NCBI GenBank assembly: GCA_050084515.1 | Contig: CM114271.1 | Location: forward strand, 4,216,001 to 4,280,000 | DNA length: 64,000 nucleotides | Reading direction: 5' to 3' | From: Blasia pusilla | Taxonomy: Eukaryota | Shown: piece by piece, positions 1-58,644 of the stretch | Position numbering within the stretch: the stretch's first letter is position 1 | How the letters are laid out: each line of letters begins with the position of its first letter | Translations under genes and position numbers: made by a program | Notes under the pieces: model-generated | The model's input: the letters and a program-made list of their open reading frames with translations, nothing else | The model's database searches: none | What the model was told of the DNA's origin: nothing

Positions 1-236
1 TTCCAATTATCGTCGTGCTTCGAGGCGATGGACTGATTGCTGAGATTGTGAGATGTCGAATGCAACCTTTCACTTCCAGTTTAATTGCTTCGAATGGAAG
101 AGAAGGGCTGCGAGCTCAATTGCTTATCAGAATGGACAAGAAAGTTTAAACATTACTCCTATCTGAACCGAGTAGTGTACTCTTCCCGAGCGAGGGATTC
201 CACCAGTGATTAAATTATTGTTGATACGGAATGCAG

Positions 237-3653: not shown

Positions 3654-4617
3654 AACATCCTCCAACTTCAGGAAATGGGGAATTTCTTGTGTATCTTACA
3701 AATGGCTTGGGAATCTAACTACCGACTCGATGGCCCTTATCAAAACTGCTGATGAACCTGTTGAAGTGATCAGTCAATCAAAACCTCTTTCTGAGATCAA
3801 AGAGAACTGAACTCACACCTACTTGGCCTCTGAGTCTCGAGTGCTTCATCTGCTTGGAGTTCCCCCAACTAGAAACTTCAAGCAGATGAGTTGTGGCAGG
3901 TTCAAAAAAGCTCCATTCTAAACGAAGTAGAGACTCATGAATCCTTCCTCGGAGAGATCAAGCATGGAATTGGATCGTATTGGTCTTCACAAGTGCATCA
4001 TCTAGGTACATGGATGGTTTTCGGTGGTTGAAAATAGCAGTGTCTTAGAGTCTGCAGATTGATGGAGAGAGAAATGAATGAAACATCGGCATAAACCTTC
4101 GCTTTTCCCATAATCCACCATATCCATATGTATACCTATTTATCTACCTATCGAGAATGAATTCTCATTGTAACAAGAAAACCCATCTTTTTCTCATTTA
4201 ATCGACACTTCCATGCCCATCCTAGATCATCCTATCTTGCTTCAATGAAAGACCTATCTATATGATTACAAGATGTGATTTATAAGGAGTGCTACACCCA
4301 TTCAGGTAAAATTGTGATTGTTGAAATAGCGAAAGACATTCAACATCCGAAGGGGATGTACAAACTTAGAGAGTTTATTACATATGATCAAGCCTTGTCC
4401 TAGAGGACATGAGAGGCTAGGCCACAGTAATCTCATGTTCTCTTGCCGGAGTTACTGGGGCCGCATCACTAGTTCTTGGATTGAATTGATGTGTGCTAAT
4501 TCACCTCACTCTTGAGGTGATGTTTGTACACACTTCCATTTTCAAATGTTGGACTATCTTATACCCATAGTTCACCACGAACATATGATGTTTCTACACT
4601 CTAATTATGGCCCCTTT

Positions 4618-4661
<44 letters not shown>

Positions 4662-4727
4662 CAAGCACCGTCCAACCAGGGCGTGGGGTCTATGGTCGCA
4701 AGGCTACGACAGGCACTACTTAATGAG

Positions 4728-4768
<41 letters not shown>

Positions 4769-20238: not shown

Positions 20239-22183
20239 TTTCATCTATCGTCATGAATTATGCAAGTCCATTCTTCACTAAATATTTCATGCGCAAATCC
20301 GTTTTTATCTTTAAACATATCATCCATAAGTTTTTTTTTTCACAAAGGATTCATGTCCTCGTATTTTGAGGATTATTTCTTGATCTCTCTATATTGTGTT
20401 GTCGTCCATAATTGCGCGCAATGGAAAAAGTAGAATATTGCACCAATGATTGCTTCCACAAGTGCTTCAAATGTTAGTTGTCAGTATGTGGAACATAAAT
20501 TCTATAACAAATTTCAATTCAACTAAGTATTCTTTTGCAAAATGATGTCATATGACCCTTCTGATGGTCACGAAAACTCTCTATCAAAACTATGGCCCCA
20601 ATGCATCAAGGAGGAAGGAATCCTACACAAAAAATCTTTCTCGCTAAACTAAAATTTTAGTCATCCTCCTCTCTCAGTTTTAGCAAGCCACATAATAATA
20701 TTCCCTCTTTTGAGACTCATCATGAAGATAATCTCCTAAGTCATGGCAATATAGCCCCCCTATTTCAAGCATCATTAACCAAGTCTCTCTTATGTTGGCC
20801 TAGACGACCAAAATTTTGAAACGCTCCATGATCATCAAGAGCATGGCCATTGCATAGGTTTTCAAAGTGCTAAGGAAAGAAGATAGCGCCTCTAGGGAAT
20901 AATAAGACGAAGATAAGATGAAGTGTGGTAGGTATGGAGAGCGCTTAAAGAGAAATAAAGAACTATAGTTGTTCAACATTAAGCAGGAGGACCTAAGCAA
21001 AATCAGATCCATGATTAATTAGGAGACGACAGAGCATATGTTGACACTAATAGTGGATGAAACATAACAAAAATGGGAAGGTTTTAGCAGCTTCAAAAGG
21101 GACTATGATTCAGACTACTGTTGTATACTTATGTGTTGTTGCATGATACTTGTCCACTAAATACACTACATAATATGAATCACAAAAATTAGTGTAAACT
21201 TCCTATACGCACTATGGACGAGTGAAGAATCGATCATGTGTACGCATGCATAAACGTAAGTATAAATCTTGATTAATGTTCAAAATTTTCCAGAAACTTT
21301 TACTGGTAGAGGATTAATTAATTAATAAGATAATAAGTAACAATATGTATTATTTGAACTACATGCACTTGCACTACCGAGTACACATCAATAATATGGG
21401 GAAGAGGAAAAAAAGGATAAGAATTTATGATTAGCGTTTAGTATTAGCACCAATGTTTTGAAATAATTTTTCGTTAACACAAATAATTTGAATATCGCTA
21501 GTTTTGGTGAGGGTCCATTGGGAAACTTTGTTATACCAAAAGGATCTTACACAATTATGGAGTATGGTGGTTTTCTCAACAAACCCCATGCTCATTAACT
21601 TTTATCATGTGGGTTTTTTCTATTTATGTGTATTAAATTTTCTATTAACCTCACGAAGAAGAACCATTTCCACAATTGCAAGCAACAAAATATGGCATTC
21701 CAAGGTTGCATAGTATGGATCATTCATCAAGCTCATTTAGTGGATAATCCAAAACCACAATTTTATATTATCATCAAAGTTTTTAATTAAAGAATGTAAG
21801 ACTTTAGGTAATTGAATTGAGTTTTTAGTATGATATGAATTTCTATGATTACAATTTTTTATGAAATATTTTTTCATACATGAAAATTCCCATTGAACTA
21901 GACATGGGTAGTACAAAACCAACACCCTAAAAGAAGGACACCATTCTAAGAACATTGTTATAAAAACACACCTACTCCATATCAATTGAATTCTTTGCTT
22001 GAGAGGGCTCAACTTTATGGATTAATAAGAAATTGGATCTATTCATCCATCCTATGGATAGAACCCTTATTGCACTAAATAGCACAATACCTATCTACAT
22101 GCTTTATGGCGAAAAACCTTGCGTGGATTTGTTTATCATTTTCTCTTTCTTTACAATGGAGGCCTCTTATGCCAGCTAGGCTT

Positions 22184-22696
22184 TGTCAGGTCTTTTAGGA
22201 TAGATCGGTGAGATCTAGTGGAACGCCTTTGAGTAGTGGAGGACATGCTCAAGAGGTTGAGGATGACCTGATGAGGCCCCGAGAAACCTAAGAGAGCAAG
22301 TTTTCCCTTCGTTTCGGATCATTTGGAGCCATATTGAGGAACATACTATTTTAGGTAAGTACCATTTTGAGTATATGGTCGACTTTCTAATTTTTTTAAG
22401 CGGCCCTTGGTCTCCTACATCAGGTCAAGAGCCAAGGAGGTGACTTGGGAGCATAGGTTACCATGGAGAGAGCTTGAGAGAGGGGAGGGGTATACCTCAA
22501 GGAGAGAGAGTTTGAGAGCTCATTCTCTCTTTATTGAATCTCTTGGCACGAGGCGACGGAGCTATGGTCCCTTGCCTTTTGAGTGTAACCCAAGCCTCTC
22601 ATTAGGAGAGTGGGTTTGGTTTGACATGGAGAGAGACATGTGAGAGTGCACACATTTGAGAGCAATGGTGTTGAGAGAGATTGGATCTTGATTTAC
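22184..22696 (+). repeat. Element 1 repeat B1 (5' terminal, promoter-bearing)
   Basis: Direct repeat of 32301-32835 with substitutions and a ~20-bp indel. TATA-like TATA at 22491 and Inr-like TCATT at 22520. Confidence 0.9.
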
Positions 22697-25600
22697 AAAG
22701 AAAGAATGAGATGAGTGAGAGAGCTTCATGGGGGAGCTCATTGGTCACTCGCTGGTTTTGCAGGTTGGGGATCGTATTCCCCGTTCAGCGGTTCATGGGA
22801 GTGCTCACCGTAGCTGGATCCACTCATTTTTTATGTTTTCTTTGCTGATTTTTTGTTTGTAAGTGTGGCGCGCGGGAGCGCTGCCCAATTTTTGATAGGG
22901 ATTGAGTATGGGGCCGAATTTCCCCATGTCGGTACTCTCGGGAGCACCATGTAGCTTGTTGATTTTTATTTTCACAGGTTTTATAATTTCTTTGGGAGAA
23001 ATCAGCGCGGAAGCGCTGCCAAATTTTGTGTAGGAGAAAGAGACGTTGGGCTTTACGACAATCCCCGTCAGTTTTTACTAGAATGTCCGATTCAAAATAT
23101 TTTTTAATACTGTCACAGATCGTAAAGCTGTGCACGCTGTGCAAAGACAGTGCACAATTTGAAGTTGCGAGCAAAAATTTATGGTCAATCTTGCAGAAAT
23201 GCCATTGCTAGGCAATTTTTAGGGTAAAATTGTTCAAACCCTTAAGCAGCCGCTGCGCCGGCAGCAGCCATCGCCGTCATAGTCACCATCAACGGTCAAC
23301 CATCACCATCAACGGTCCTCTGTCACCGTCAACGGTCTACCCTCCACCGTCCACTGGCGGTCGCCACCGCCGCCTAGCACTGATCATAACCGCGTTCGGC
23401 CGTTGTTCACCCTTGGTTGCTATTGCCGCCATTACGGAGTGGAGGGTCTTCCACAACGACTGTTGATTCTTTGACTTGTGCCACCACCACGTACTTTATT
23501 TTGGCCGCCATTGTCATCGCAATTTCGTCATCAACGTGTGATGGCAAGTGACCTCGGGTTATAGTGTTTGAGTTTTCATTTCATTCTGCTATGTTGTGAT
23601 TGGTTGCTGCTCGAGGACGATCGAGTACCGTGCCGTAACGCCCATAGCTGCAACGCGCCGCCGATTGCCGCGTTGTGCCGCTCGTGGCCGCACCGCACCG
23701 TCTCGATCGCAGAGCCGCTCCTTCACTAAGGAGCACATCGTGTGTATTTTTTATTGAGGAGGGTATGCCATGGAGTGCCGCATCCCATTATCGAGTGACG
23801 TGCCGTTTTGTGCCGCCAGTGCCGCACCGTACCGCGGGATCCGCACCGCATATCGAGGAGGTTTGAGCAGCGTCAATACGAGAGGAGTACGACTTGCTGA
23901 TTGGAGGAGTTGTCTTCAAGACCAAGTTGGGGTTGAAATTTGCAGTTGCCGAGGAGCGACATCGACATTATTATCAGGTTACCCAATCTGGTCTCTTACC
24001 CTACATGTGTGACGGAATTCCGGGTATTAGGAAGTTATTTGGGATATTGGGCTTCATACTAATGTTGAGAGCATTGATGGCATATGGGTTGAGGGGACAT
24101 ATACCTATGTGGGATGTCCAGAGTTGAGGATGGTTTATCGATGAGATTATAGATAATTTGATTTGCCGCACCACGCCACTTGTTGCCGCACAACACACAT
24201 CTCGGTGAGAGAGTGTAGCTTGAGTGCCGCATGTTAGATTGAGTGATTCCGTGATTACTCGTGAGGTTGAGAGTGATCGTGTGAAGGGGGCACGAGGGTC
24301 ATCACGGCATCCTTTTGAGACTTTGAGAGGTGAGGTGGTAGACCGGAGAGTAGCTCTAGAGGGTTTATGCGGAGTGGTGCGAGGTTTCGAGGGTCTCCAC
24401 GTGCGGGACCACCTCGACCTCCTTCTGTGTCATCTTTAGACAAGGAGGAGGGCATAGAGGAGTTGAGTAGTGCTTTGCCACTCACATTGAGTAGTCCTAT
24501 TGCTTGGACGTACAAGATGGACGACTGACGTAGAGGACCGCGTAGGTTCTTAGGTGCAGTAGGCACGATAGAGTTGCAAGACTTCATCGCGGAGTTTAGG
24601 AGTTGGTACGACTCACAACGTGCTAGGAACTCTAGAGAGTTCAACCCGTTATCAGCATGGAATGTATGTTCCAGCATTTAGAGGGGACACCCATGAACGA
24701 TTACCATGAGTTCTCCCACAGATATGCCCAAGAGATTGAGGCATGGCGACTCTACTTTGACCCACACTATGTGTCATGGACGGAGTCGTTCCCAGTTGAG
24801 GAGGAGGAGTTAGGAGACGCTACTTCCTCTTCCACCAATGATGTTCTAGGAGGGTAACTCACATTGGAGCACTTGCACTGTCCATTCTGGTTCGTCCCAC
24901 GTTCCACCCCGTGGTTGAGTTCTTTGCTGAGTTGAGGGCGAGCTACCAGGGGGTACGGACGGAGAAGTTGCGGAGCATCCACGACTTCGAGAGGCGCCCG
25001 GGTGAGAGTAACCTCAATGCCATAGCGGCAATGTGCTCATGTAGCTGCTATATCTAAGCAGCCATCCCAGCCTCACGCCCGACGTCTCCCTCGACGCGTC
25101 TAGGTGGTGGGACTCTACCTCCTCCACAAGCAACTCCACCACCCTGTTAGGCAACTCCAACTCCGCGTTCCCCAATAGGACCACCTGGTGTAGATTGTTG
25201 CTATGGCATGGAGGTTACTCGATGTCAGATCCGTGGCCTTGAAATCATATGGAGCAGCCAAAGATATGGAGGATCTTGGTTTGATGTGTGGGGTTTCCCA
25301 GGTGGAGGCCGCCATAGTTGTGACGCGTGGAGCAGCCGTAGAGTTGGATCCACAGCAAGGGGAAGCCAGGAAACAGACCAGACTTCCTCAATCTTTCACG
25401 TTGTCCGAGGCGATGAGGACCCCATCAATGGGTCCTCATCAGAGTTCTTGAAGAGTTGGTGATGTTATTGGTATGCAGCATAGAGGGCAATGGGAGAAAC
25501 AAGTGCGAAGACTCCTATTGTGGATGCTCAGAAGGAGCATGAGTCGAGTACGATGTTGGGGGCGGCCACAATGGTGTACCGTGCTCTGCTATTTTTTGCT

Positions 25601-32172: not shown

Positions 32173-32961
32173 TGGAGATATTTTTGTACTTCTTGTTTCG
32201 TTGTTTGGATGCCATGAGTTAGCATGGGATCGTGTGTGTTTGTATGTGTGTTCGGTGACAACGATGTATATTGTGTAGGGATGTATATGCGCACGACAAT
32301 TGTCACGTCTTTTAGGATAGATCGGAGAGATCTAGAAGAGCGCCTTTGTGAGTAGTGGAGGATATGCTCAAGAGGTCAAGGATGACCTGCTGAGGCCCTG
32401 GGAAACCTGCTCTCTCAGGTTTCCCAGGGTCTCTCTTAGGTTCCCCTTCATTTCGGCTCATTTGGAGCCATATTGAGGAACTTGCTATTTTAGGTAAATA
32501 CCATTTTGAGTATATGGTCAACTTTCTACTTTTGTTAAATGGCCCTTGATCTCCTACATCAGGTTAAGAGCCAAGGAGGTGACTTGGGAGCATAGGTTAC
32601 TATGGAGAGAGCTTGGGAGAGGGGAGGGGTATACCTTAAGGAGAGAGAGCTTGAGAGCTCATTCTCTCGTTGTTGAACCTCTTGGCACAAGGTGGCGGAG
32701 CTATGGTCTTTTTCCTTGTGAGTGTAACCCAAGCCTCTCATTAGGAGAGTGGGTTTGGTTTGACATGGAGAGAGATATGTGAGAGTGCACACATTTGAGA
32801 GCGATGGTGTAGAGAGAGATTGGATCTTGATTTACTGGAGATATTTTGGTACTTCTTGTCTTGTTGTTTGGATGCCATGAGTTAGCATGGGATCGTGCGT
32901 GTTTTTGTGTGTGTTCGGTGACAGCGTTGTATATTGTGTAGCGATGTGTATGCGCACGAGA
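32173..32961 (+). repeat. Element 1 3' terminus A1-AT-B2-A2, preceded by PPT AGGGGGG (32162-32168)
   Basis: A1 (32173-32298) and A2 (32836-32961) are 126-bp direct repeats flanking B2; junction CGACA-AT-TGTCA at 32294-32305. Confidence 0.92.
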
Positions 32962-34184
32962 GCTTCATCACTCACATCCACCTCTCCAAACGGAGTGCAA
33001 TGGATTTATTTATGCGCATCTCTAAAGTCTTCTAGGGTTTTGAGTTATCTCGGCTTTCACCCAAGGAGGATATAAGATTTTTTGGTGTTGGTTACTTATA
33101 GACCATTCATCACCAAAATTTATGTGCCCTTATTGAGCCAACTACACTCCGTCAACCCCACCAACTTCTCCAATTCTCTGAAGGCAGAGCAATAATGGCA
33201 CTATTTTTGCATGTCTCCAAAGTTATCTAGGGTGGAGGCTCACAGAGGCTTCACTCAAGGTTCTGCGATGCTGGTTAAGATTATTTCCTTCTTACTCCAC
33301 GCTACCGAGCCACATAGACTCCATCTGCCATACCAACTTCTTGGAACGGAGAGTACTAATGGCACTATTTCTCAACATCTCCAAAGTTATCAAGAGTCCA
33401 AGGTTTTCCTAAGGAAAGTACTATTTGGGGATACTTGTTCATACAAGAAAATCACTTCTGCTAATGGGATAAAGTTGGGGAAAATAATTTTTAGGATGGT
33501 GTGGGATTTAATGGATGTCACATCTAAGTAGCCGATAGGTAGGGATCTATCCTGACGATGACATAGAGAGCCGGCGTCCACGGACTATCTTGAATGTAAC
33601 TTCGTCTTGAGGTGTTGAATGGGGTTGAGGATAGTTCCGTTGTGTCAGAAACGTCGTTTCTAACAACTTTTCTGTTTGGGTCTTTCACAGTTGAGTGACT
33701 TACTAAAGAAGTCACCCGAATATATGTGCGCGCAGGTTACCAAGAGGATTTCTATTTTTAGGGGAAGAGCCTTTTGGCTCTTCTCACACCTATATATGGG
33801 AGAGGGATGGTTTTCCCAAGCCATCTTTCTCATGTTGGGCCATTGGAGCATCTCTCTTGTTCGTGTGTGAGAAAGAACCAGGGTGCTAGCGTCCGGATTC
33901 CTTAATAGTACAAGATGGACGAGGCTCGATATGCCAATGTAGATTGAGGAGTGGAGTTTTAGACTAGATGTGCCATTTTTACTCTTATTTTTGTTGTATG
34001 ATCTCGATGTACATGCATGAGTTGATTTTTGTTCATGTGTGGATCTATCCGTATGTTGGGGAAGATTGGTGTTGTATGGTGTAGATGTGACCAGCGATAT
34101 GTATGCACACAACATGGATATAAGAATTTTTTTTAATGAAAATTCTATATTCTTATTGCATAATACCTTTTTTGGTCAAATTCC

Positions 34185-35604: not shown

Positions 35605-38449
35605 TATATGTTAACTAGTGCACTGAAAATGCCTCCACTCTTACTTGTGTCATGCAAATTAGCGAGATGTAGTAGCATGTCATTCACACAAATTTAAGTT
35701 TTTAAGATGATAAACATCTATCTACTCACTTAAAAAAATTGATTTCATTTCAAAAATATTTCAACTCTAGAAAAGGAAAGAAATACCCCATCATTATATT
35801 ATGAAGTTTTATTTATAACATTACTTCTTGATTAATTCACCTAATTTATTTCAATCTACCTAATCTAGTTTCATCACGTGCTCCATTCACAAATAGCTTC
35901 ATATAACGCAATGATTCCCCTTATTTTCTTTCCACAAGAGATGATTTGACACCTCTTTTTTTTAAATAGCTTCACTTCTTTTAGAATAAACTTCCCTCAC
36001 ACATTAACACCACTTTCCTTAATTAATAGTATAGATTATAACTAATTTATCTCTTTTGGGCATAGAATAGTATCATCAAGAAGAAAAAATCACTAAAATC
36101 CTCCCATAAACATTTTCAAACTTTCTCCCTCCACGGTGTACATTAAATGGACATAAGTGAACTCAATAAATATGGGAGGTTATGATATCGATACCTTTTT
36201 TTATCCATAAAAGTTCATCAAAATCATTGAAACAAAGTGATAAATGTTACTCATATTCATAAGACTTTGTGTTGCATATAAAGGTAGCATTAGTGAGTGA
36301 TCTCTATGAATTATTAGGAGATATATTATTGTAGTCATTCCTTCAAAGTTTTTATAAATTTGAGAGTGGAATGTGCACAAATGAGTATGATCATACCTTA
36401 AGAAATAATGAACAAAATGGAGAAAAAAATCATGATATTAAAAATATGGTCATGGTAAATTTTTAGTGATGGTGTTTCTATGTAAGCATTATTATGCCAT
36501 TAAGGTTTTGGCTATGATTCTACCATATATTCCATATTGATGTCAAAATAGAAAATCATATGCATTACAAAAAAGTGTGCTCTTAGTGTACACAAATTTT
36601 GACCAAGAAAACCTAATAAGAAGTGTCAAAGCACAAAGGAACTAACACATGTATAATCTACGGTCAAGCAAGAACTTGTTTAGAAAGTGACAAGTAGCAA
36701 AAATATAAGAATTTGCTTACAAGATCGAGCTCTTTCCTTGTTCCAATTTCTTTTGTGGCTAATATCTAGAATCAATTTTTTAACAAGTAAAAATACATCC
36801 TTGGAAAGGTATTTAGAAATGTTATAATGCACCTCAACAATTTTGAAAGTATATCTAGACAATTTACAAAGAAGTAATTTCTTAGCTCTAGATCTAAACA
36901 TCTCATAAATACATGAAGGGAAGGGAAAAGTTCCAAGTGGCTACCGATCATCTTTTGGGTAATTTCTTAATGTGATTTCTACACTATGATATTAGGGTGC
37001 ATAAGTAGTAAAAAATAATTACCATGGGAAGTTTAATATGAAAGAAGAAGTGGAGAGACTTGGAGTGAGGAAGAGATAAATTTCTTAAGGGAAGGTGGAT
37101 GACTTTTTCTTCTCTAAGTGAGGAGGTAGAGAATTTGGGAACCTTGTTTTCCTCAATTAAGGAAGGATGATAGTTTCCAAAATGAGGAGGATGAATTGGG
37201 GGTTTTCTTATTCCCAAAACTAATAGGTGGAAAGGATGAATTTCCAAATGAAGGAGGGGGCCATGGAGTGAACTTTCAAAATGTGCAATAAAGGAAAAAG
37301 TGCATTGAAATTTTCTCAAAATGAGCATAAGAATTTGTTATGTTTAATTTGTGCAATGCATGAGCGCAATAAATCTTTTCTTTATTCAATAGACTTCCCT
37401 CTTAAATATGAAGCACTAAAGAGACAAGAAAAACCATACAAAAAAAAGCCACAAATATTTTCCAATAACCAAGAAGGGGAAACTATCAAACATAAAATAG
37501 AGAATGAGAATATCCCACAAGAAAAAATAGACAATGCATGAATTATTTAATACTATTAATAATTTGTGTGCAATGTATGAGAGTCATATTAACATGTACC
37601 AAATTCTTATCATGTTAGATAGTTTTCCAATCCACATTTTTTTTTCATAGAAAAAAGCCATTTAAACAATACGATGAACTCTTTGAAAGACCGGATGCAT
37701 CAACATTCCATCATGAGGCTTCACTTAGTTTAGAATATTATTTCCATGATAAGCTCTATTATTTTAATTCTAAATTAGATGAGTATTGTTCCATTCATAC
37801 TTAGCCACATGCAACCTAGTGATTTCCTTATTTACTTTCCATAAGAGATGATATGATACTTCATATTTGCCTCTTGAAAATAGCTACAATTCTCTTCGAA
37901 TTGACTTTCCTCACATAAACCCTCTTCCCATTGTCCCTTACTCAATTAATAATATAAAGGCTATACTATATTTTACATGACTTAAAAGAAGGATGGCAAG
38001 TGTTCAAGGTGGAATATGTCCACTACTAAATCTTGATATGTTAAGACTACAAGAATACTCATCAACTTTCTTATGTCATCCACTAGGCATCCCTCTCATC
38101 AATGTTAAAGTTTGAGTGTGATAACTATCTTTCCATTTTTTTAAAATTCCCCTTTTCTATTCTCATAAAATGATTCCAATTATGAATATTCCAACTTTAT
38201 GCTAGGCAAGAATATCTCATCTTTCAGATTTATGACTTGCAAGGTGTATCCCTAATGGCATTCCTTCATCCTCGCGTGCTTCACTTTGCCAAGCATACCA
38301 ACTTAGCTAATTGGATGTCATCCAAGTTGGCATGTATCCATTGTATGAGTTAGTGGTTGATATTGTGGATACTGGATCCTTCACATCCTCCACTACTAGT
38401 ATATTCTTTGAATTTGGGCGGAAGAAATTGTGATGTTCCTCTAAATCTC

Positions 38450-39032
38450 TGTCGTGCGAATCCACATCGTCATACAACATACATCGCTGACATACCATAC
38501 TCACATACATACATAACATAGACGAGAGCATCCACAAACACAAGTGTACCACAACTGAAATCCGTGAAAGACCTACTGTCATAAAACACGTATAGAATCA
38601 CATACAATCGAGCCAAACCCACTCCACGATGGGAGAATCTAGGTCGAAGCTTGCAGGAGACACCATAGCCAAGAGCTCTACTCACTACCAAGGCTTACTC
38701 CCAACACAACAGGCTCAACTCAAAGAACTGACTGTTCTTTGAGTGCACTCCACCTTATATCCTCCAACCTAAGAGTGGGCCCTACTGGAGAAGTCACCCT
38801 CAACTGAGTAACCCCCAACCCTATGTATGAAATTGCATCTCTACCTAGACACTGCGGCCCTACATAAGGTATGGCCTCTACTAGCACACTATACTCTACG
38901 ACATAATCCGTATGGTCATGACAGCTGTCGTGCGAATCCACATCGTCATACAACATACATCGCTGACATACCATACTCACATACATACATAACATAGACG
39001 AGAGCATCCAGAAACACAAGTGTACCACAACT
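38450..39032 (-). repeat. Element 2 3' terminus A1-GC-B2-A2, preceded by PPT (plus-strand C-run 39033-39039)
   Basis: 107-bp A repeats flank a 368-bp B; junction TGACA-GC-TGTCG at 38919-38930. Confidence 0.95.
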
Positions 39033-39203
39033 CCCCCCCTAACTAGCGGTTAGGTCCCTCTAACTCCCAGGTAGCCTTATACATCTACTACATGCTATAA
39101 ACCTTCTTCGGTGCACGAATCAGAAGGCCGGGTGCTAGGTTGCCCCATCGTTAGTCGCACATCTATAATCCATATCATGCAAAGATCAAGTCATCTACCT
39201 CTC

Positions 39204-42200
39204 CTAAGTACATCGAGGACAAACCCACCTTCCTGTAGGAACAACATCCATACGTGGAGTCAAACACATCATGTGCCAACCCCTAGAACACCGATCACAC
39301 ACCAACATACGGGCTGCGTTACCAGCAGACCCACACAACATGCACCTCAAGCTAGCACGTTTCATGGCTAAGCTTGGGTCAACAGTACCATCCACATTTG
39401 GAAGATGAGATGGCGCACAATTACGCACATGGTCCTTCCAAAAAACTCCATCACGATCCTCCAACATTAGAACTCCAGAAGCTAACACCTCGCGCACTCG
39501 TAAAATAGTACGGCCTGCCGTCACATCCAACATTGTCGGTGCAGTCTGCTGCAAATAGACATAGTCCCCCACATGGAACCTATGAATCGATGGTCGATAA
39601 CCTCCACCCCGAATGGTTGCATACCGCAACGTATCCCTCTGTTGAGCAATTGCAAGATTCTCATAGGCTGTTGGCATAACTCTCCGAAAGAGCTCTGCCC
39701 GCTGAGAACACACTCTCATCCACATCTCTGGGTCATCAAGGTTCACCACCTCACTAGACTCCGACAATTGATCTTTGGCAAGTCTGGATCTCGGCCGTAT
39801 AACAGAAAATAAGGTGAGAAGGAAGCCAAGGATGCTTGGCAACTGAACCTATACCCCATGGCTAACCATGGCAACTGAATATCCCAGTCTCCAAGATGCC
39901 CCTTTTGTAGGCCATACTTGCGCAATGCCTTCTTCACCGTCTGAACCACACGCTCAGCCAAACCATCCGCCTCTGGATGATCTCGAGACGTGGTCCGATG
40001 ATCAATCAACGCCTTGTCACACAAGACCTGAAACTCACCCTAAAACTCTGTACCCTGGTCGGTCAACACTTCATCTGGTGCACCAAAATGACTAAGCACT
40101 CTATCAAGAAACGCATACGCCGTTCCCTCACTTGCCTTGTCAGGTAACGCCACCAACTCAATCCACTTGGAGAAGTGCTCCACCATCACCAACACATATC
40201 GATGATGTCGTACAGTCAACGGTAACGGTCCCGCAAAGTCCACACTCCAATGGTAATCCAACCCCATAATAGGCAAGGGGTGTAACTGTGGTGTAGGGGC
40301 ATTGAATGATGCCCTCACCCGGTCACAAACCATACAACGTGACACCAACTGCTGGACCTGAGTATGCATGCCACGCCACCAATACTGACCAAGGAGTAAG
40401 CTATACGTACACTTTAACCCAAAATATCCCAACTCCTCATGGGCATGTCGCACAATCCGCTCTCTCTGAGCCAAATGCGGCACTACTCGTACTCTACCAT
40501 CCTCCCACACACGGAGAATATGTGTTCCCTCCAATCGATACCTCTTAGCACGTTGAAGAACACGGTCTCGCTCCTTGGCACTCACTATGCCTGGCACCCT
40601 ACTGGTCCGTGGGAACTCCAATACCAACGCATCATGATGAATATCACGCTGATCCGTACCACCATCTCCAACCTTAGGATCTGAAGGCTGGCCATCTCCC
40701 CTCTGACTAGAGTAAGATATCATGTGGTTCTCCATACTAGAGTCCACCCCTAACCAACATAAAAAGGTGGATGCATGCCAACCTGGCACCATCTCCTCAT
40801 CAACCTCGCCATGCCATCTAGCCCCAGTTGTATCCTCTTGGCTAGTACATGGGTTCCTACTCAACCCATCAAAGATCAAGGTTGGCAACTCCGTTCTATG
40901 TACCACCCGGAAGTCATACTCCTGTAAGATAAGAGCCCACCGTGCAAGCTTCCCTGTAAGCTTGTCAGACTCCATCAATCACTTGAGTGGCTGATGATCA
41001 GTAACAAGGGTAAACTGTGTGCCAAACAAGTAACACCTAAAGTGTGCCACAACCCACACTACAGCCAAGCACTCTCCCTCATATGAACTATAACGCGACT
41101 CTGCTGCATTATTCGAACGACTTGCATATGCCACCACAAACTCCATGTGCTCATCATCATGTTGTGTCAACACCGCTCCAAGTCCCAACCTACTCCAATC
41201 AGTGTGTAACTGAAATGGGCGCCCTCTAATAGGTCTCCTCAAGATAGGCGCCGCCACCAACTGGGCCTTAAGCTCCACAAAAGCTCTCTCCTGATCATCT
41301 CCCCATTGCCACTCTTGATCTGATTTCAGCAATTGGTTCAAAGGCTTTGCCATAGCACTAAATCCCTTCACATACCTCCGATAGTAGTTCGCCAATCCCA
41401 TGAATGCTCGAACTCTACTCACATCTACCGGACGTAGAATAAGTGCAATAGCCTCCACCTTTGCTTGCTGAACTCCCAAACCACCTGGATAGATCACATG
41501 ACCCAAGTACTCAACATCCTCATGGAAGAACTTACACTTTCCTGGATGCAAACGTAGACCATGAGCTTTCAACCGCTCAAACATCATCTGCAAATGTATC
41601 TGATGCTCCTCCATCGTGTTACTGAACACCAAGATATCATCAATGTAACATCGAACAAAATCCAACCCTGCTAGGATCCTGTCCATCACTCTCTGAAACT
41701 CAGCAGGTGCATTCTTCAACCCAAAGGGTAAGAATTTCCATTGGTACAAACAATCCTTGCCATGAGAGTTGACACCCCAAAATGCTGTCTTGGCCTTGTC
41801 ACTCTCCCGAATCGGAAATTGATGGTATCCTGCCCGAAGATCCAAAGTACTAAAAATCTTTGCCTGTCCCACCACATCAAAGATCTCCTCAGGTGTAGGC
41901 ATGGCATACCTATCGACCTTGGTTTGCCGATTGATAGGACGGTAATCTCCACACATCCGCCTATCCGTGTAGTTGCCATGCATATCCTTTTTAGCAGGCA
42001 TGACAGTGGCTGATGCATACTCTCCATGCGACAAATCCACTAATCTAGCCTCCAAAAGGTCCAACGTCCTACTCTGAATCAGGTCCCTCTCCCTATCACT
42101 ATATCGGTAGGGACGACGGAAGATTGGCGTATCACTAGCCAAATCAATCCGTATACCGGGTCCAACCAGAGAACCCAACTCCTTCATGCTAAAGGCAAAA

Positions 42201-45200
42201 CAACTCCTATAAGCATGTAGGAACTGTGTCAAGCGTCGTTTCTCACCTCCCGTAAGCTTGGGCCCAAGTAATGGCTCCCAAGTCTCCTCCACTGACACAC
42301 TAGAGGGAGAGGACGATGCCATTAGCTGCTACGCAACCCCCTCACAAGATGGTACACCCTTAGCTACACCATCATCTGAGCAAATAACTCCTCCACCAGC
42401 ATGAGCAACCAACTCCACATGCCCAGCCATTACATCCCATTTACTCCAAGGATGCAAAATACTACTCTCCTCGCCCCCAGCCGATGCCTCTACCGTCCCG
42501 GTAGCCATCGAGCTCATTACAAGGGGTGGAAGATCCACATACATAGTCTGAAGTCAACGCTGCTCGGCCATACCAAGACTCAAAATCCAAGTCAAACAAT
42601 TCAGGTCCATGGCCTGACCCAACACATAACGTCGTGAAGCCTCAGAAATGGAAGCAACCGTTGTCACACCAGTAGCAAATCCCATCGCACGCTCTCTCTT
42701 ATAAGCATTAGGCTCCACCAACTGTCGCACATGAGAATCCCATACAAGCCCAGGACCACCTTCCCTATATGCATGTGACGAGGGAAAACTCACAAATGTG
42801 GGTAGTGCCATCCTAGGCTGGCCCACACGGTTCACCACTGCCATGGGTGACCGATCAATAACCCTCACCACCTGAGAAAGTCGCCCAGTATCCAAGATAC
42901 TATCCACTGTAAGGGAAGGTATCGCTGCACTGCATTATATGCTCGACGTAGAACCTCCCTAGGCAACAAGTTTGTCCACCACAAGCATGGACGATGTGCA
43001 CGCGAGCCAACTCGCGCTGCATCTAACAACACCGCTGGTCCAATCCAAGACCGCATCTCATGAACACTCGCCATCATCCGGGTCCGAGTGTCACCCAACA
43101 ATGGAACATTCTCCAGAATGTAAGCTAAAGCACGTGCCTGATGAACCTGAAGATGTCGTAACACCCGTAACATCTCCCAAAACAATCGAGACCTAGGGTC
43201 GTGTAATCCCTCACCACGACCAGCACGTGTATGACACTGACATGGCCATCCCGCAATCACCAAATCCACAGGACCAACCCTCTCAAGGTCCTGCGCCCCC
43301 AACAATGCAATGTGTGACGGCAAAGCACGCTGGTACCCACGAATAGCTGATGGCGGCAACAACTCAGGATATCTCCGCATCAACTGACCAATATTTCGGG
43401 ATGAGACTCTCTGGGCCGTCTCATCTCGCTCCACATACACGTATCTCCGCACAGGAATACCGACTTACAACACTGCAACCAAACCAGTGCTAATCCCACC
43501 CAAGAGATCTAACACACAAATGCCCTCCACCGGATACTGCCATACAATGGGTGTAGTATCCAAAGGGATAATCCAACTGGACCAGAAGTAGGAGTCCGCC
43601 GTGGGGCCTCCTCTTCCTCGTGAGGTATAACAGCCTCACACCAAGCCTCTTGCACTAGGCGATCAGCCTCCTGCCGTAGTGCACCGCCTGAACTCCAAAG
43701 TGGCACATCCAACGATGAGGATGCCACTGCTGCAAAAATAGTGACCTCCTCTACCTCCTCATGCGCAGGAGAATCCATAGCATAAACATTACCCTCCAAA
43801 AAGTCTCCTGGCCAAGTGACTACTCCACTAAAACCAACCACAGATGCTAACACTGTTGGGGAAGACCCTCTTGGTCAAGCCCCATAAATAAATCTCACAG
43901 GAACTTGGCTCATACGTCCATCCCCGCACTGCCAACCAAGTCTATAAGACGTTGTCTCGGTCCAGTAATCCATCCAAAAACCCATCGGGTACAATATTAC
44001 TCCTCCAACTAGTACATCATACGACTCGGCTGATGTGACTACCGCAGATACTCCCAACCGGGAGCTATCAGTCGCATGATCTGGTCTCAACTATACAGAA
44101 AACTTCTCTCGTGTCATGAATTGAGACCTATCGTTGGCTCCTCCAAGTGATGTTTGAATCTGGAATGGGCAAGGCTCAAGCTCTGACCTCCGAATACCCA
44201 AACCAATACATGCCGCCTTTCCCAACATCAAAGGTTGGGCACCAGAGTCTAACAAGACTCTATCTGGTCTATACACATATCCTGTAGGACTCACCAATCA
44301 GAATATCCCACTCCGGTTGTCCAACATACATACACCAGGTGTAAGCCTCTCACGATCAATGGCTGGCCGGGCGGGTAATGCATCCATCTTCGCCGTTGCT
44401 GCCTGCCAAGTAGCATTGGTACTCAATGCTACACTTGACATAGAGGGTCTCTCCACCGCAAAACCCTCATCCACCTCAACACGTGTAGCAGTAACACCCC
44501 CACGTTCACACAACGTGGCTGCTAGCTGAAATACAGGAGCTAAGTCAACTCCTAAAGCCATCAACTCCGTGGCCGAAAAAAATGGGGATCCCAACACTGA
44601 AGTTTCCATCCGCAATACTGCACTAGATGCTGCATCCGTGTCTACTACACGCGATGTAGATGCCTCAGTCCCCACTGTCGGCTCAATAGGTTGCGTAGGA
44701 ACCATGGATGGAGTCCTAAGCACCTCAGACAATAAGAATGACTGGGGAAGCCTAGCCTGCCTCCCAGCCTCACCCCTTTGTGGGTCCAACTCCACAGTAG
44801 CACCACGTGGCTGTGATGCTCGAGTGGATCCTCTCGTAACTGCAGCTGATGCCTCAACCTGTGCTGCACTTGCCATATAAGAGAAATCATCCCCTCCATA
44901 AGAGGTGGAAGCCCCTGCTCCCGAACCTGATCTATGTTGGATCCCAGCCATAGTAGCCAACTCGCTCCAATCTGCTCAATCTGGCGACCATAGATGACTC
45001 TGTCGTAGTGGTAGGGGTAGCCACCGTAGGCTCTCCAACCACTGGTCCACCTCTACCACCCCTACCACCTCTACCACCTCGGCCTCTCGGAGCTACTCCA
45101 CCACGGCCGCGGCCTGATCTCAACTCTGGATGAAGATCAAAGCAACGCTCTCGAGGATGACCTGGTCTCCCGCAATGATCACACTGAGTTGGGGCCGACT

Positions 45201-46400
45201 GAGGCCCATCCTCCAAAGTCCGTCTCCCATCCTCTTGGGACAAAACTTCCTAACATGATCACCTCCACATGTCTAACATGACTGTCCTTGCTGCGGGGCA
45301 GCAAATGAAGGAAATGGTCTCTGCGCAAGTGTCCCTCTAGGACCTGACTGAGGTCGTGTGTACCCCCCACGACTCCCACTACTACTACCACCACCACTAC
45401 TACGAGACTATGAGGTGGGCTGCTGAACACGAGAAGTAGTAGTTGTATCCCTACTGAATGCGGATGTCACCACTCTCTCCTTCACCATGTTAAGCTCAAT
45501 CTTCTCAGATAGAGCAAACACATGGGTCAATGTGGGTGAATCATCACTCATAAGAGTAGCATCACGTACCCTGCGGCGCAACTCTCTGTCCAAGATCCCA
45601 TACCAAAACAAGACTGCCTGAGCCTCAGTCACACCCTCGGTAACTAAAATCAAGCGTCGCATATGAGTGTATGCCTCACGAAGACTCTCACTAGTCTTTC
45701 GCTCAAATTCTTGAAGACTCCTCAACTTCTCTGTCTTCACTCCCTGATAGTTCTTCTTCAACCTCTTGAAGAACTCTGCAACCGGGCTAAACGACGGTGG
45801 GGCACTAGTACCTCCACTAGTACCTCCATGGGTACCTCCACTGGTACTCCCAATCCGGCTCGTACTCGTACTACCCAACGTCAGGCTAGCTGGCATAGTA
45901 GGAGCACTACTACCAATACCACCATGGGTGATAGACACATAGCCTGGAGACCAATATTGTCTCCACGCCTAAATCTCAGCAACATGGTCCTTCCTAAACT
46001 CATGGTAATCATCCATGGGTGGTCCCTCCAAGTGCTGAAACAACCCCTTCCAAGCCAAGAAGGATGTAAACAACGTGGCGTTCCGCAACATCTGCATATC
46101 ACACCGCGTATCAAACTCCTGCATGAAGTCCTCCAACTCAATGGTGCCCATTGCACCCGAGTATTGTCGTGGGCCCTTCATGGCCCCATATATCTCATCC
46201 ATGTCCCAAATCAATGGAGCTGCAACACTCGATAACAACGTAGAAGACTCGGTGTTTGGAACACCCTCGTCCTCCTCTTCATCAACGGTCGGAAGTGGAA
46301 AAGGTAGCCGATACCTAAATCCACTCCGTGTGAAACCACCACTGTCCGCACCACGGTCCCCAACCAGACCACCCGACAGCTCCGTGATGACCAATGCCAA
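39204..46400 (-). pseudogene. Element 2 gag-pol polyprotein: gag (CCHC knuckle, RGG tract), PR, DNMT, RT, RH, IN, PHD
   Basis: CDHCGRPGHPRERC; VLLDSGAQPL; RT YIDD intact; RH LHTDWS..SYEGECLA..TDHQPL; IN WSVDFAGP/LTDQGTEF/GLAERV; PHD C4HC3. Adjacent ORF pieces are mostly in one frame, separated by point stops and a few frameshifts. Confidence 0.93.
42560..43560 (-). pseudogene. DNMT3-like C5 cytosine methyltransferase domain of element 2
   Basis: ICVLDLLGGISTGL..YVERD..PVDLVIAGWPCQ..SRLFWEMLRVL..YILENV..LLDAARVGSRAHRP..WWTNL..RERAMGF..VLGQAMDL, with one stop and a frameshift. Confidence 0.92.
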
Positions 46401-47915
46401 TGCCGCACCACCACCAAATTACCACCACTAAGTAACCAAGTGACGTCGATGTCGCTATACTATTCTAGCTCTACTAGCTATGGGTGTAGGCAACCTAACC
46501 TCTCATCACCACATGAAGCCTCCCACGGTCTACTGGTCATCACTCCAGCCTCACTACCGGTAGCACATAGGAGTAACACTACTCTGGAAATCAGCGTCAA
46601 CCCTAACAATGGGCGTGCAAGCAAGAAGCAACGATGGAGGGGATCCAAACACAGGAAGTCCAACGACAACCCTCCAATTGCAAATGGAAATCAAGATAAC
46701 ACAATCCACAAACGTGGCGCCCCCTGAACCCACAAAACCCACCACACAATTCTAACGCAATAGTTACTCCGCCGCGGGTCGATGACGTGCTAGTCGAACT
46801 CGCAGCACCTGAAAATATCACTTGCATGGAGAGGCTACACCGTACTATACGCTAGAGGTACATCAACCAAAAACCTGAGATGCATAAAGCGCCTAACATA
46901 TCTTCGAACAGCACCAAATGAGCTACAATAGTGTGTACACTGGCATAGTTAAGAACTCAGCAGCTAAGCGTCCTCTAGGCACAATAGCCCAAAGATGGAT
47001 GACCAGTTATGCAACACTCAAATCATAAATCCTGCAAAAATTGCCTAACGCCCAAGCAAGCAAGCTTGCTTGCTTGCTCCTTGCTCCTTACTCCGCCTCT
47101 CACGCCCACTCGCCCCGACCTACCACGAGTTGCATCGAAGCCTCAAAACGCCGAGAAATGCTCGAGACATGCCCCTATCGCCACGCTTGCCATGCTTCGC
47201 TATGGAGATAGGCCCAACCAGGGCGCCCCCAATGGGATAGGCGTCTCCAAAAATGAACGAGTCACCAACCAACCAGCCCCTCCGATCCGCTGTCCACCAT
47301 AGCTAGACCTTGAGCTAGTCCGCAAAATTTTGATCAGCAATTACTTCACAAATCCTTGACCAAAATTGAATCTATTTTGACCAAAATTCAATTGGCCACC
47401 ATAGCTATCTCTCCACAAAAAATCAGCTACAACGGAGCTCTGTACTCCGAGCTAAAAATCAGACAAACTTGCTGTCCATACACCTCCAGAATCGCAAATT
47501 CGACAGCGCTTCAGCCCAGTTTCATGCACGCAGAAATCCGCAACGCTCCACACACTCGATCAAATAGCTTCACATGAGATCACAATACAAGTAGCAACAA
47601 GAACCTCTCACCCGATCTGGATGAACTTCAACAGAGCTTCCGCACTCCACGCTCTCCTCATCAGAAAACCGTCCAACACGAACCAGAATCTTCAATCCTT
47701 GATAACTTCCAACTCCCTTGACGAAATCCAGCGATCTAAAGCACGTTGTAAAGCTCTCAGCAAGGCGCTTCTTTCCCAACCAACCAGGCACCAGATTCAC
47801 ACCTCCAACATAGGCCACAAGCCACGAACATTCACGGCCGAGTACACAATCAACCCTAACCAGATCCTACTGATCCACTATCGAAGCTACCATCGATCTA
47901 TTCTAGTTCTTTGAG

Positions 47916-48283
47916 TGAAATTCGTGAAAGACCTACTGTCATAAACCACGTATAGAATCACATACAATCAAGCCAAACCCACTCCACGATGGGAGAATCT
48001 AGGTCGAAGCTTGCGGGAAACACCATAGCCAAGAGCTCTACTCACTACCAAGGCTAACTCCCAACACAACAGGCTCAACTCAAAGAACTGACTGTTCTTT
48101 GAGTGCACTCCACCTTATATCCTCCTACCTAAGAGCGGGCCCTATTGGAGAAGTCACCCTCAACTGAATAACCCCCAACCCTATGTATGAAATCGCATCT
48201 CTACCTAGACACTGCGGCCCTACATAAGGTATGGCCTCTACTAGCACACTATACTCTACGACATAATCCGTATGGTCATGACA
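47916..48283 (-). repeat. Element 2 repeat B1 (5' terminal, promoter-bearing)
   Basis: Copy of 38556-38923; minus-strand ATATAA at 48120-48115 and Inr TCAGTT with +1 at ~48089. Confidence 0.93.
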
Positions 48284-49083
48284 TCTCTAAAAACCATTGT
48301 ATGTTCCTTTGGGTGCGTCGCCTTACGATCATCTCTTATCACTTCTTATAACTTTATTGGCTTCTTCTATTCATTCAACTAATTAAATAACATAATCACT
48401 TCTCGAGCTTGATTCCTTATTCTTATCATATTGTATCTATGATCTAACCCTTAAGAAACATAAAGTAAACAAAATACTGGCATGACATTATGTAATTAGA
48501 TTGATGTCTACTACCATCCCTCCCAAGGTATTTAGGATGCCCAAACATACCATAAACCTTGCAAACTCAATCGATTTTCTTTCCTTAAGATATAACATTA
48601 TACCACATGATTCCTTTTTTTTAAAAAGAAAATCTCGATTGTCTTAGAAAATTCTTTCCTAACTTAAATATTGCTTTCTCCCTTCCAACTCGCATCCCCT
48701 CTCATCAATTAATAATATAGATTGAGAAACAAGAGAGAAACAAGAGTAGGAAGATTAAACCTCCTAAGAGCAACATTCCTTGCTGTTAGAACACAACTCC
48801 AAAACTTATTTCTTAGGTATCTTACAGAGTAAAGCGAACAAAATAATAATTAAAAGTGAAATTATGGACATTATTCTACCAATCAATGTGAAATTCATGA
48901 TTTTGAATAGGAATGAAAGACCTCTCCTATCCTTCACGACAATGTATAAATTGCACTAAAGAAATCTAAGTTCCATTAATGTGTGGAGTATTTTATTTTT
49001 GCACAATGGAGGAAAAGATATTGTATTAAAACAGAATGGCTATCAATTGATAATATTAATAAGAAAAAAAAGCAGAGTGGATA

Positions 49084-51541: not shown

Positions 51542-51859
51542 CATGATTGCAAAAAATTGGAAAAGTCCATTCTTACGATGGACATGCACGGAAAAGTCAA
51601 GACATGTCCATGGACATGCACTGCAAGAGGTGGGGCCCACACTTATAGTTTATAATGGAAGGCAGGGGAAATTGGGCAATAAGGCGGGAGGGAGTGGAGA
51701 TGGAGGGAAGAAGAAACAAGAAAGTATGAATAATGAAGGCAAGTAGGGAGAATGAGAAAGAAGGGGAAAGTAGGATCCACATGGACAAGTACCTTCATAG
51801 GATTGATGTAAGTCCATGGACATATCCTCGGACACGAAATTTGTCCACATGCAACCTTG
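51542..51859. mobile_element. hAT-type MITE
   Basis: CATGATTGCA ... TGCAACCTTG; TSD ATTGATCA/GTTGATCA (1 mismatch); body similar to 58329-58644. Confidence 0.8.
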
Positions 51860-58328: not shown

Positions 58329-58644
58329 CATGGTTGCACAAAAATGGACAAGTTTTTCTGAGAGACAGACAACATGGACAAGTTTCAAAAGATGGGGCCC
58401 ACACTTATAATTCATGATGGAGGGCAAAGCAAGGGTGGACGGGGCAATAAGCGGGGGAGGGAGTGGAGGTGGGAGGAGGAAGAAACAAGAAAGTGCGGAT
58501 CATAAAAGCAAGTGTGGGGGATGAGAAAGAAGGGAGAGATGGGGCCCATATGGACAAGTCCTTCAGACTCCTTCTATAGGACGGACGTAAGTCCACGGAC
58601 ACAAACATGTCTACGAACACGGACTTTGTACATATGCAACCTTG
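58329..58644. mobile_element. hAT-type MITE
   Basis: CATGGTTGCA ... TGCAACCTTG; 8-bp TSD CAAACGTC. Confidence 0.88.

Follow-up and report, generated by a model that had tools for sequence, protein, structure and literature searches.

Element 2 (E2) is a decayed Ty3/gypsy retrotransposon that occupies positions 48283-38450 on the minus strand of a 64,000-nucleotide stretch of Blasia pusilla DNA (GenBank assembly GCA_050084515.1, contig CM114271.1, positions 4,216,001 to 4,280,000), here called the window, whose numbering is used throughout. We present evidence that E2 probably primes minus-strand DNA synthesis with its own RNA, by a mechanism of the Tf1 type and from a transcription start that is predicted from the sequence; we would put the probability of this at about 0.7. 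Tf1 reportedly primes reverse transcription with the first 11 nt of its own RNA and, to our knowledge, experimental proof of self-priming exists only for fission-yeast elements, the mechanism being inferred for their relatives. An earlier note on the window, made from its letters and reading frames alone, had proposed that this lineage self-primes, and the proposal is now supported by comparison with relatives, by the points at which the 3' repeat copies end and by the modelled fold of the RNA.

The candidate site, ACTCAAAGAACT (47916-47905, minus strand), opens on the final base of the 5' repeat, A1, and is the perfect reverse complement of AGTTCTTTGAGT at 48089-48078 on the same strand. This is the 12-mer complement that the earlier note had called exact, and all 12 of its 12 bases pair; the complementarity is exactly 12 bp long, with the flanking position on each side unpaired. 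The A at 48089 is preceded by C and lies 31 nt past the first T of TATAAG (48119-48114), in keeping with the note's placing of the 12-mer about 30 nt downstream of ATATAA. When the 30 nt that follow the repeat were shuffled 2000 times, 3 shuffles reached a 12-nt complement anywhere in A1, and the E2 pairing score, which allows G-U pairs and mismatches, was reached by 5 of 500. For a 200-nt RNA modelled from 48089, the minimum-energy and centroid structures alike had nt 1-12 in a duplex with the site, and the fold had a z of -2.39, with 2 of 200 shuffles folding as well. The tRNA-type TGG is absent directly after the E2 5' repeat. The nearest one is some 23 nt downstream (at about 47893), and we rejected it as a tRNA site because the stretch around it is not conserved among E2-clade relatives.

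According to the mechanism that we favour, transcription would begin at or near 48089, about 31 nt after the TATA box, and the first 12 nt of the RNA (AGUUCUUUGAGU) would fold back onto ACUCAAAGAACU, which abuts the 5' repeat; the two stretches are complementary in the sequence, and their pairing in vivo is presumed. By analogy with Tf1, an RNase H cut after the duplex would free a 3'-OH that could be extended through U5 and R, and the resulting strong-stop DNA would transfer to the 3' repeat, at its short R. Plus-strand synthesis, starting from the G-run in front of B1 (the first copy of the short repeat), would then copy the retained primer and in this way renew the site in each cycle. Such renewal would explain how the complementarity between the site and the RNA start is kept while both change between families.

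The start region also contains an 11-mer, ACTCAAAGAAC, that is identical to the site and lies at 48104-48094, just upstream of the predicted start. Together with GTTCTTTGAGT and a 5-nt loop it makes an 11-bp hairpin that spans the predicted transcription start (48078-48104, with a second copy at 38718-38744, both on the minus strand). The hairpin is formed by 48104-48094 with 48088-48078; the E2 clade conserves it, and the L059 clade, which is described below, does not have it.

Relatives, repeat ends and RNA reads

The comparison drew on 80 loci from a scan of metagenome contigs by reverse transcriptase (RT) alignment, and 22 5' ends were aligned, namely those of E2, of element 1 (E1; the second element of the window) and of 20 from the loci. 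Nine form the E2 clade (E2, L018, L026, L025, L029, L006, L024, L004 and L003, the last of which equals L004 there), and twelve form the L059 clade (L059, L066, L076, L067, L072, L068, L062, L048, L050, L047, L036 and a reverse L059 copy). Within the latter L062 and L068 are 98% alike, and RT of the L059 clade is only 40-49% identical to that of E2. The pairing test took a window of -3 to +20 around the repeat end and recorded its best-pairing position relative to the TATA box; for E2 the offset of +31 was read directly, the automated search having picked a different TATA there. The best pairing of the post-repeat window fell at TATA+23 to +35 in 18 of the 22 5' ends.

Three sequence versions stand at the same two places, each with its own partner. 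In the E2 clade AGTTCTTTGAGT is matched with ACTCAAAGAACT; in E1 CTCATTCTCTCTTT is matched with AAAGAAAGAATGAG (13 of 14 bases); and in L059 AATTTTTCTAGAATT is matched with AATTCTAGAAAAATT, where all 15 of 15 bases pair and none of 2000 shuffles was as good. The duplexes of L029 and L018 are 20 bp each, with 19 Watson-Crick pairs and one G-U, while L006 pairs at 19 of 20 positions, L062 at 17 of 18 and L036 at 13 of 13. When L006 is compared with L029, two adjacent pairs are changed on both sides, C-G to T-A and A-T to G-C, and pair 5 of the L059 clade (n=12) is A-T in one sequence, G-C in five, G-T in two and mismatched in four. The site and the start segment thus co-vary across families, with compensatory pairs as well as three distinct versions, which is the comparison that the earlier note had put forward as a check. 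Its observation that a TGG-type primer-binding site is missing also extends to the relatives, as none of the 22 aligned 5' ends has TGG at the repeat end, nor do these ends share any other conserved candidate primer site after the repeat.

In every family examined, namely those of E2, of E1 and of the L059 clade, the long repeat's 3' copy (A2) stops 0-4 nt inside the site. In E2 it ends ...GGATTTC, followed by the first base of the second B copy (B2); in E1 it ends ...GATTTAC; and in the L059 clade the ends vary by family, being AA, AAT, AATT or AATC. Since A2 was made by reverse transcription, the point where it stops corresponds to the 5' end of minus-strand DNA, and an end 0-4 nt into the site therefore places minus-strand initiation at this duplex.

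Transcription was followed in three stranded RNA runs (X8, X9 and X10, with 4402-4750 reads each), whose species label is shared by some runs that contain part of the window, E2 depth being taken in 341-nt bins. Nearly all reads have their first mate on the plus strand, which in most stranded libraries denotes minus-strand RNA. Over the 5' repeat the depth (X8/X9/X10) was 5.6/7.4/6.2 in 48189-48500, as against 41.3/44.5/42.7 in 47848-48188, the bin that contains R-U5. Over the 3' repeat it was 68/108/66 at 38776, dropping to 19/39/19 by 38696 and to 4/3/6 by 38659, and the bin 38300-38640 had a depth of 1.5/3.0/5.1, B2 being hardly transcribed. At this low resolution the RNA 3' end lies about 40-70 nt past the second copy of the 12-mer (38729-38718), and the fall in depth within the 3' repeat indicates that R is short.

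Alternatives to self-priming

A number of observations weigh against self-priming. Four of the 22 5' ends lack the pairing altogether (L026, L024 (start segment deleted), L072 and the reverse L059 copy), and the pairing score of L003/L004 is no better than that of shuffles (255/500). Within each clade both partners are mostly conserved, and clear double changes are few: a single sequence accounts for two such pairs, and the other clade adds one more. In L018, L029 and L006 the pairing extends 8 nt upstream of the start proposed for E2, which implies either that starts differ between families or that the partner is not strictly the first base of the RNA. The upstream copy of the motif (48104-48094) also offers the 12-mer a second possible partner. 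With respect to the RNA, only 51-79 reads per run are at least 99% alike to E2, and most are 90-99% like it and therefore derived from related copies. Finally, the one stack of fragment ends listed near A1 (5 molecules, X8) falls at 48153, which puts it 64 nt before the predicted start; this position is upstream of the TATA box, and the stack may come from U3 reads of the 3' repeats of other copies.

Covariation by itself shows that the two stretches pair, not that they prime. It could also reflect a long-range RNA structure, acting in packaging, dimerisation or translation control, that joins the 5' end to the leader while something else serves as primer. The modelled fold, which closes a large multibranch loop, and the reach of the pairing upstream of the proposed start in three relatives would both suit such a structure. 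However, nothing speaks more strongly against a role in structure only than the position of the A2 end, 0-4 nt inside the site in every family examined, and the aligned 5' ends present no other conserved candidate from which synthesis could be primed. We therefore consider a structural role without priming to be unlikely.

Still less probable is a host RNA primer, such as a tRNA half, a fragment from inside a tRNA or some other small RNA, for which the match to the repeat would be secondary. Half-tRNA priming is known in plant copia lineages, as set out in the main text of Neumann et al. (2019, PMC6317226), and ARAGORN found 0 tRNA genes in the window and the 80 loci, leaving no tRNA set for comparison. 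A host primer would nevertheless hold the site constant, and the change of the site from clade to clade, with the TATA+30 segment changing along with it, therefore counts against one. The lack of a TGG start in every aligned 5' end points the same way, as does the failure of any Rfam family to match 47400-48400 (E up to 1). That the site arose by chance or duplication, as a third copy of the start-site hairpin motif with no part in priming, is very improbable: the motif does occur three times in E2 (48104-48094, inverted at 48088-48078, and 47916-47906) and the E1 version is GA-rich and of low complexity, but the L059 clade has the site-start complementarity without the upstream hairpin arm, and the repeat-end and TATA+23..35 positions are both kept in 18 of the 22 5' ends.

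Repeat layout and integration

The probable self-priming of E2 is accompanied by a repeat layout that is more unusual than self-priming itself. Both E2 and E1 are built as A1-internal-B1-A2-B2 (Table 1). Of the 15 elements listed, 12 have a G-run polypurine tract immediately in front of B1. The termini are TGTC...GACA and are flanked by 4-bp duplications, which are perfect in E2 (GAGA), E1 (GCTT) and L059 (TGTG) and agree in three of four bases in L062 and L072; the terminal GACA of E1 now reads GAGA. The B1/A2 junction, GACA-NN-TGTC, equals the two termini joined, NN being GC, AT, TA, AC or GT according to the family.

A B-A-B layout was found in 19 of the 36 loci that have at least 2.8 kb downstream of the RT match, duplicate loci included and with the B pair of L072 counted from a separate repeat comparison. 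In nine loci (L024, L006, L036, L067, L066, L043, L005, L049 and L052) B1 is followed by unrelated DNA, without A2-B2, and five such A-internal-B loci have A1 as well as a 4-bp duplication; the duplication is perfect in L024, L006, L036 and L067 and matches at three of four bases in L066. These A-internal-B copies may be primary insertions of one-repeat circles or the products of later deletions between B1 and B2.

The A2/B2 joint consists of the minus-strand start joined exactly to the plus-strand start, and B+A can therefore be read as the repeat made by reverse transcription. We tentatively suggest that the lineage inserts circularly permuted cDNA, its DDE integrase cutting the internal palindrome of a closed or end-joined molecule, although we hold this to be somewhat less likely than not to be correct. 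On such a scheme the RT-made repeat B+A would begin at the G-run polypurine tract and stop at the self-priming site; the host-joined ends, with TGTC...GACA and the 4-bp duplication, would lie at the palindrome inside that repeat; and each full copy would carry, at A2/B2, the blunt U5/U3 joint of the closed or end-joined cDNA. Were the layout to arise from a two-repeat circle in which either palindrome is chosen symmetrically, A-B-A-internal-B copies would be expected; none was seen (0/16), no A or B copy being present within 900 nt upstream of any of 16 5' ends, and this simple form is therefore doubtful. If it is true, permuted insertion would be the integrase counterpart of the split-direct-repeat elements that use a tyrosine recombinase, and self-priming would fix the U5 side of the joint.

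Two classes of RNA read also touch the repeats. A few (3-5 per run) join 48250 to 47962 or 38602, so that a position 46 nt short of the end of repeat A is linked to one 33 nt after its start; some relative may have one repeat joined to another in this way, or short stretches that are alike may have misled the mapping. Many more (19-92 per run and site) match E2 as far as the polypurine tract at 39034-39035 and then continue in E1-family B sequence, which shows that the family of E1 is expressed too. Elsewhere in the window a further pair of 105-nt direct repeats (51686-51790 and 58455-58559) is 79% alike and 6.8 kb apart, in AT-rich DNA.

Coding content and relation to known elements

The order of domains in E2 is a weak gag match, a methyltransferase fragment, RT with RNase H, integrase and a PHD finger, in frames that are broken (Table 1). 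The best solved-structure match of its RT is that of Ty3 (E 1.9e-66), ahead of a chain named 'Enzymatic polyprotein' and of retroviral RTs; the order RT, RNase H, integrase and an RT nearest to that of Ty3 are those of Ty3/gypsy elements (Metaviridae). No tyrosine recombinase domain occurs in any E2 frame of at least 100 aa, an integrase with H2C2 and rve domains being present. The C-terminal frame contains no chromodomain, Pfam finding a PHD finger there instead, and the intact relatives likewise list PF00628 and not PF00385. The closest named RT relatives come from the liverworts Calypogeia fissa and Marchantia polymorpha (75-84% identity) and more distant ones from Closterium, Klebsormidium, Chara and Haematococcus, the Klebsormidium proteins being 43-51% identical. 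Many intact relatives combine a DNA methyltransferase (DNMT; PF00145) with RT, RNase H, integrase (rve) and PHD, and PHD-bearing relatives are also named from Klebsormidium and Haematococcus. Within the coding region, 13, 21 and 26 RNA reads in the three runs connect 39676 directly with 40684, save for 9 other letters in between; either expressed relatives are without some 1 kb of the integrase region, or the present copy gained it.

Table 1. Features of E2 and E1, with positions in the window.
Feature	Position	Strand	Basis or remark
E2 left target-site duplication, GAGA	48284..48287	-	directly before TGTC of A1
E2 A1, 5' long repeat, 368 nt, TGTCATG...GAATTTCA	47916..48283	-	97% identical to 38923-38556; U3-R-U5 inferred
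E2 TATA box, TATAAG	48114..48119	-	seen in sequence; TATAAAG/TATAAAA conserved in relatives
E2 upstream hairpin arm, ACTCAAAGAAC, direct copy of priming site	48094..48104	-	complementary to 48088-48078
E2 predicted first 12 nt of transcript, AGTTCTTTGAGT, proposed self-primer	48078..48089	-	complementarity, shuffles, fold
E2 candidate primer-binding site, ACTCAAAGAACT	47905..47916	-	complementary to predicted RNA 5' end
E2 broken gag-like frames	45408..46418	-	weak Retrotrans_gag match, E 0.016, under Pfam cut-off
E2 C-5 cytosine DNA methyltransferase fragment, upstream of RT	42865..43464	-	PF00145, E 4e-9, profile positions 62-120 of 324
E2 reverse transcriptase and RNase H	40979..42328	-	RVT_1 1.7e-33, RT_RNaseH_2 2.2e-31
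E2 integrase, H2C2 zinc domain and rve core, frame broken at end	40040..40978	-	Pfam
E2 C-terminal PHD finger frame	39204..39848	-	PF00628, E 1e-10
E2 polypurine tract, AGGGGGGGAG, directly before B1	39031..39040	-	G-run
E2 B1, short repeat ending ...CGCACGACA	38926..39032	-	repeat comparison
E2 palindrome GACA-GC-TGTC at B1/A2 junction	38920..38929	-	equals the element's two termini joined
E2 A2, 3' copy of long repeat	38556..38923	-	second AGTTCTTTGAGT copy at 38729-38718; RNA ends about 38660-38700
E2 B2, second B copy, ends GACA at 38450	38450..38556	-	99% identical to B1
E2 right target-site duplication, GAGA	38446..38449	-	directly after GACA of B2
E1 A1 repeat	22184..22696	+	CTCATTCTCTCTTT at 22519-22532 starts 29 nt after TATAC (22491)
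E1 post-repeat site, AAAGAAAGAATGAG	22697..22710	+	13/14 bases complementary to 22519-22532; score reached by 5/500 shuffles
E1 3' end	32173..32961	+	B1 32173-32298, junction GACA-AT-TGTC, A2 32301-32835, B2 32836-32961
E1 target-site duplication, GCTT	22180-22183, 32962-32965	+	flanks element

Self-priming has been shown for Tf1 and inferred for elements from fungi to vertebrates, as summarised in the available text of PMC4600332. Like Tf1 and Tf2 of Schizosaccharomyces pombe and Tj1 of S. japonicus, in which a primer-binding site next to the 5' long terminal repeat (LTR) can pair with the start of the mRNA that the element itself makes, this mRNA replacing a tRNA as primer (PMC4600332), E2 has a candidate for such a site abutting its 5' repeat, matched to the predicted start of its RNA. 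It differs from these elements in carrying a PHD finger at the integrase C-terminus instead of a chromodomain and a cytosine methyltransferase in pol, in having duplexes of 12-20 bp and the layout A1-internal-B1-A2-B2, and in that its priming is deduced from sequence. The description 'Tf1-like' in the earlier note accordingly stands for the mechanism but not for clade membership: because it has no chromodomain, E2 is filed as working like Tf1 and not as a member of the Tf1/sushi group. In plants, self-priming has been predicted for the Tcn1 chromoviruses of mosses and club-mosses and for the Ty1/copia lineage TAR, with 12% of the elements surveyed falling under this prediction (Neumann et al., 2019, PMC6317226). 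E2 resembles Tcn1 and TAR as a plant LTR retrotransposon that is without a tRNA-type site and predicted to be self-primed; the main text of that survey mentions neither Marchantia nor Klebsormidium nor any DNMT/PHD lineage.

A described counterpart in content is KnitGypsy-Dnmt3 of Klebsormidium nitens, a Gypsy pol with a Dnmt3-type methyltransferase (de Mendoza et al., 2018, PMC5890265), for which the legend of Figure 4c describes the repeats as DIRS-type and the domains as Gypsy. E2 shares with it, as far as that account goes, a C-5 cytosine methyltransferase in pol and a DIRS-like repeat layout. The available text of the 2018 paper does not mention priming, target duplications or a junction palindrome for KnitGypsy-Dnmt3, and it puts the acquisition of the methyltransferase in the K. 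nitens lineage, whereas the combination DNMT-RT-RNase H-integrase-PHD is found here also in proteins named from Marchantia, Closterium and others. Judged from these sequences, the DNMT/PHD architecture appears to be spread more widely than the single-lineage acquisition reported in 2018.

In its repeats E2 resembles PAT, TOC and Ngaro, which have A1-B1-A2-B2 split direct repeats whose internal ones lie downstream of the coding region, as described in the available text of PMC4157794. Unlike these tyrosine-recombinase elements, E2 has a DDE integrase (H2C2 and rve) and makes 4-bp target duplications. By its description, the Chlamydomonas element Gypsy-7a_cRei is also alike, being an active Gypsy whose polyprotein has a PHD finger (PMC9940879); a figure legend there mentions 'LTR subparts' and says that the left LTR is without the last 8 bp of the right one, and priming is not described for it in the text available. 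In the open-access literature we found no statement on priming in a DNMT/PHD-bearing Gypsy lineage. Self-priming as a mechanism is already known, and the DNMT/PHD-bearing, KnitGypsy-Dnmt3-like lineage is its new setting. New here are also the target duplications, the junction palindrome and landmarks for both primers, the DIRS-like repeats having already been remarked on in the 2018 paper, to judge from the legend cited above.

A well-supported case in a separate-looking DNMT/PHD lineage, with relatives named from liverworts, Closterium, Klebsormidium, Chara and Haematococcus, would make self-priming wider than the Tf1/sushi group, or older. For the elements themselves, the site would mark the exact start of minus-strand DNA. 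Taken with the palindrome, the polypurine tract and the duplicated target sites, it turns the 2018 observation of 'DIRS-like repeats in a Gypsy element' into a testable replication problem.

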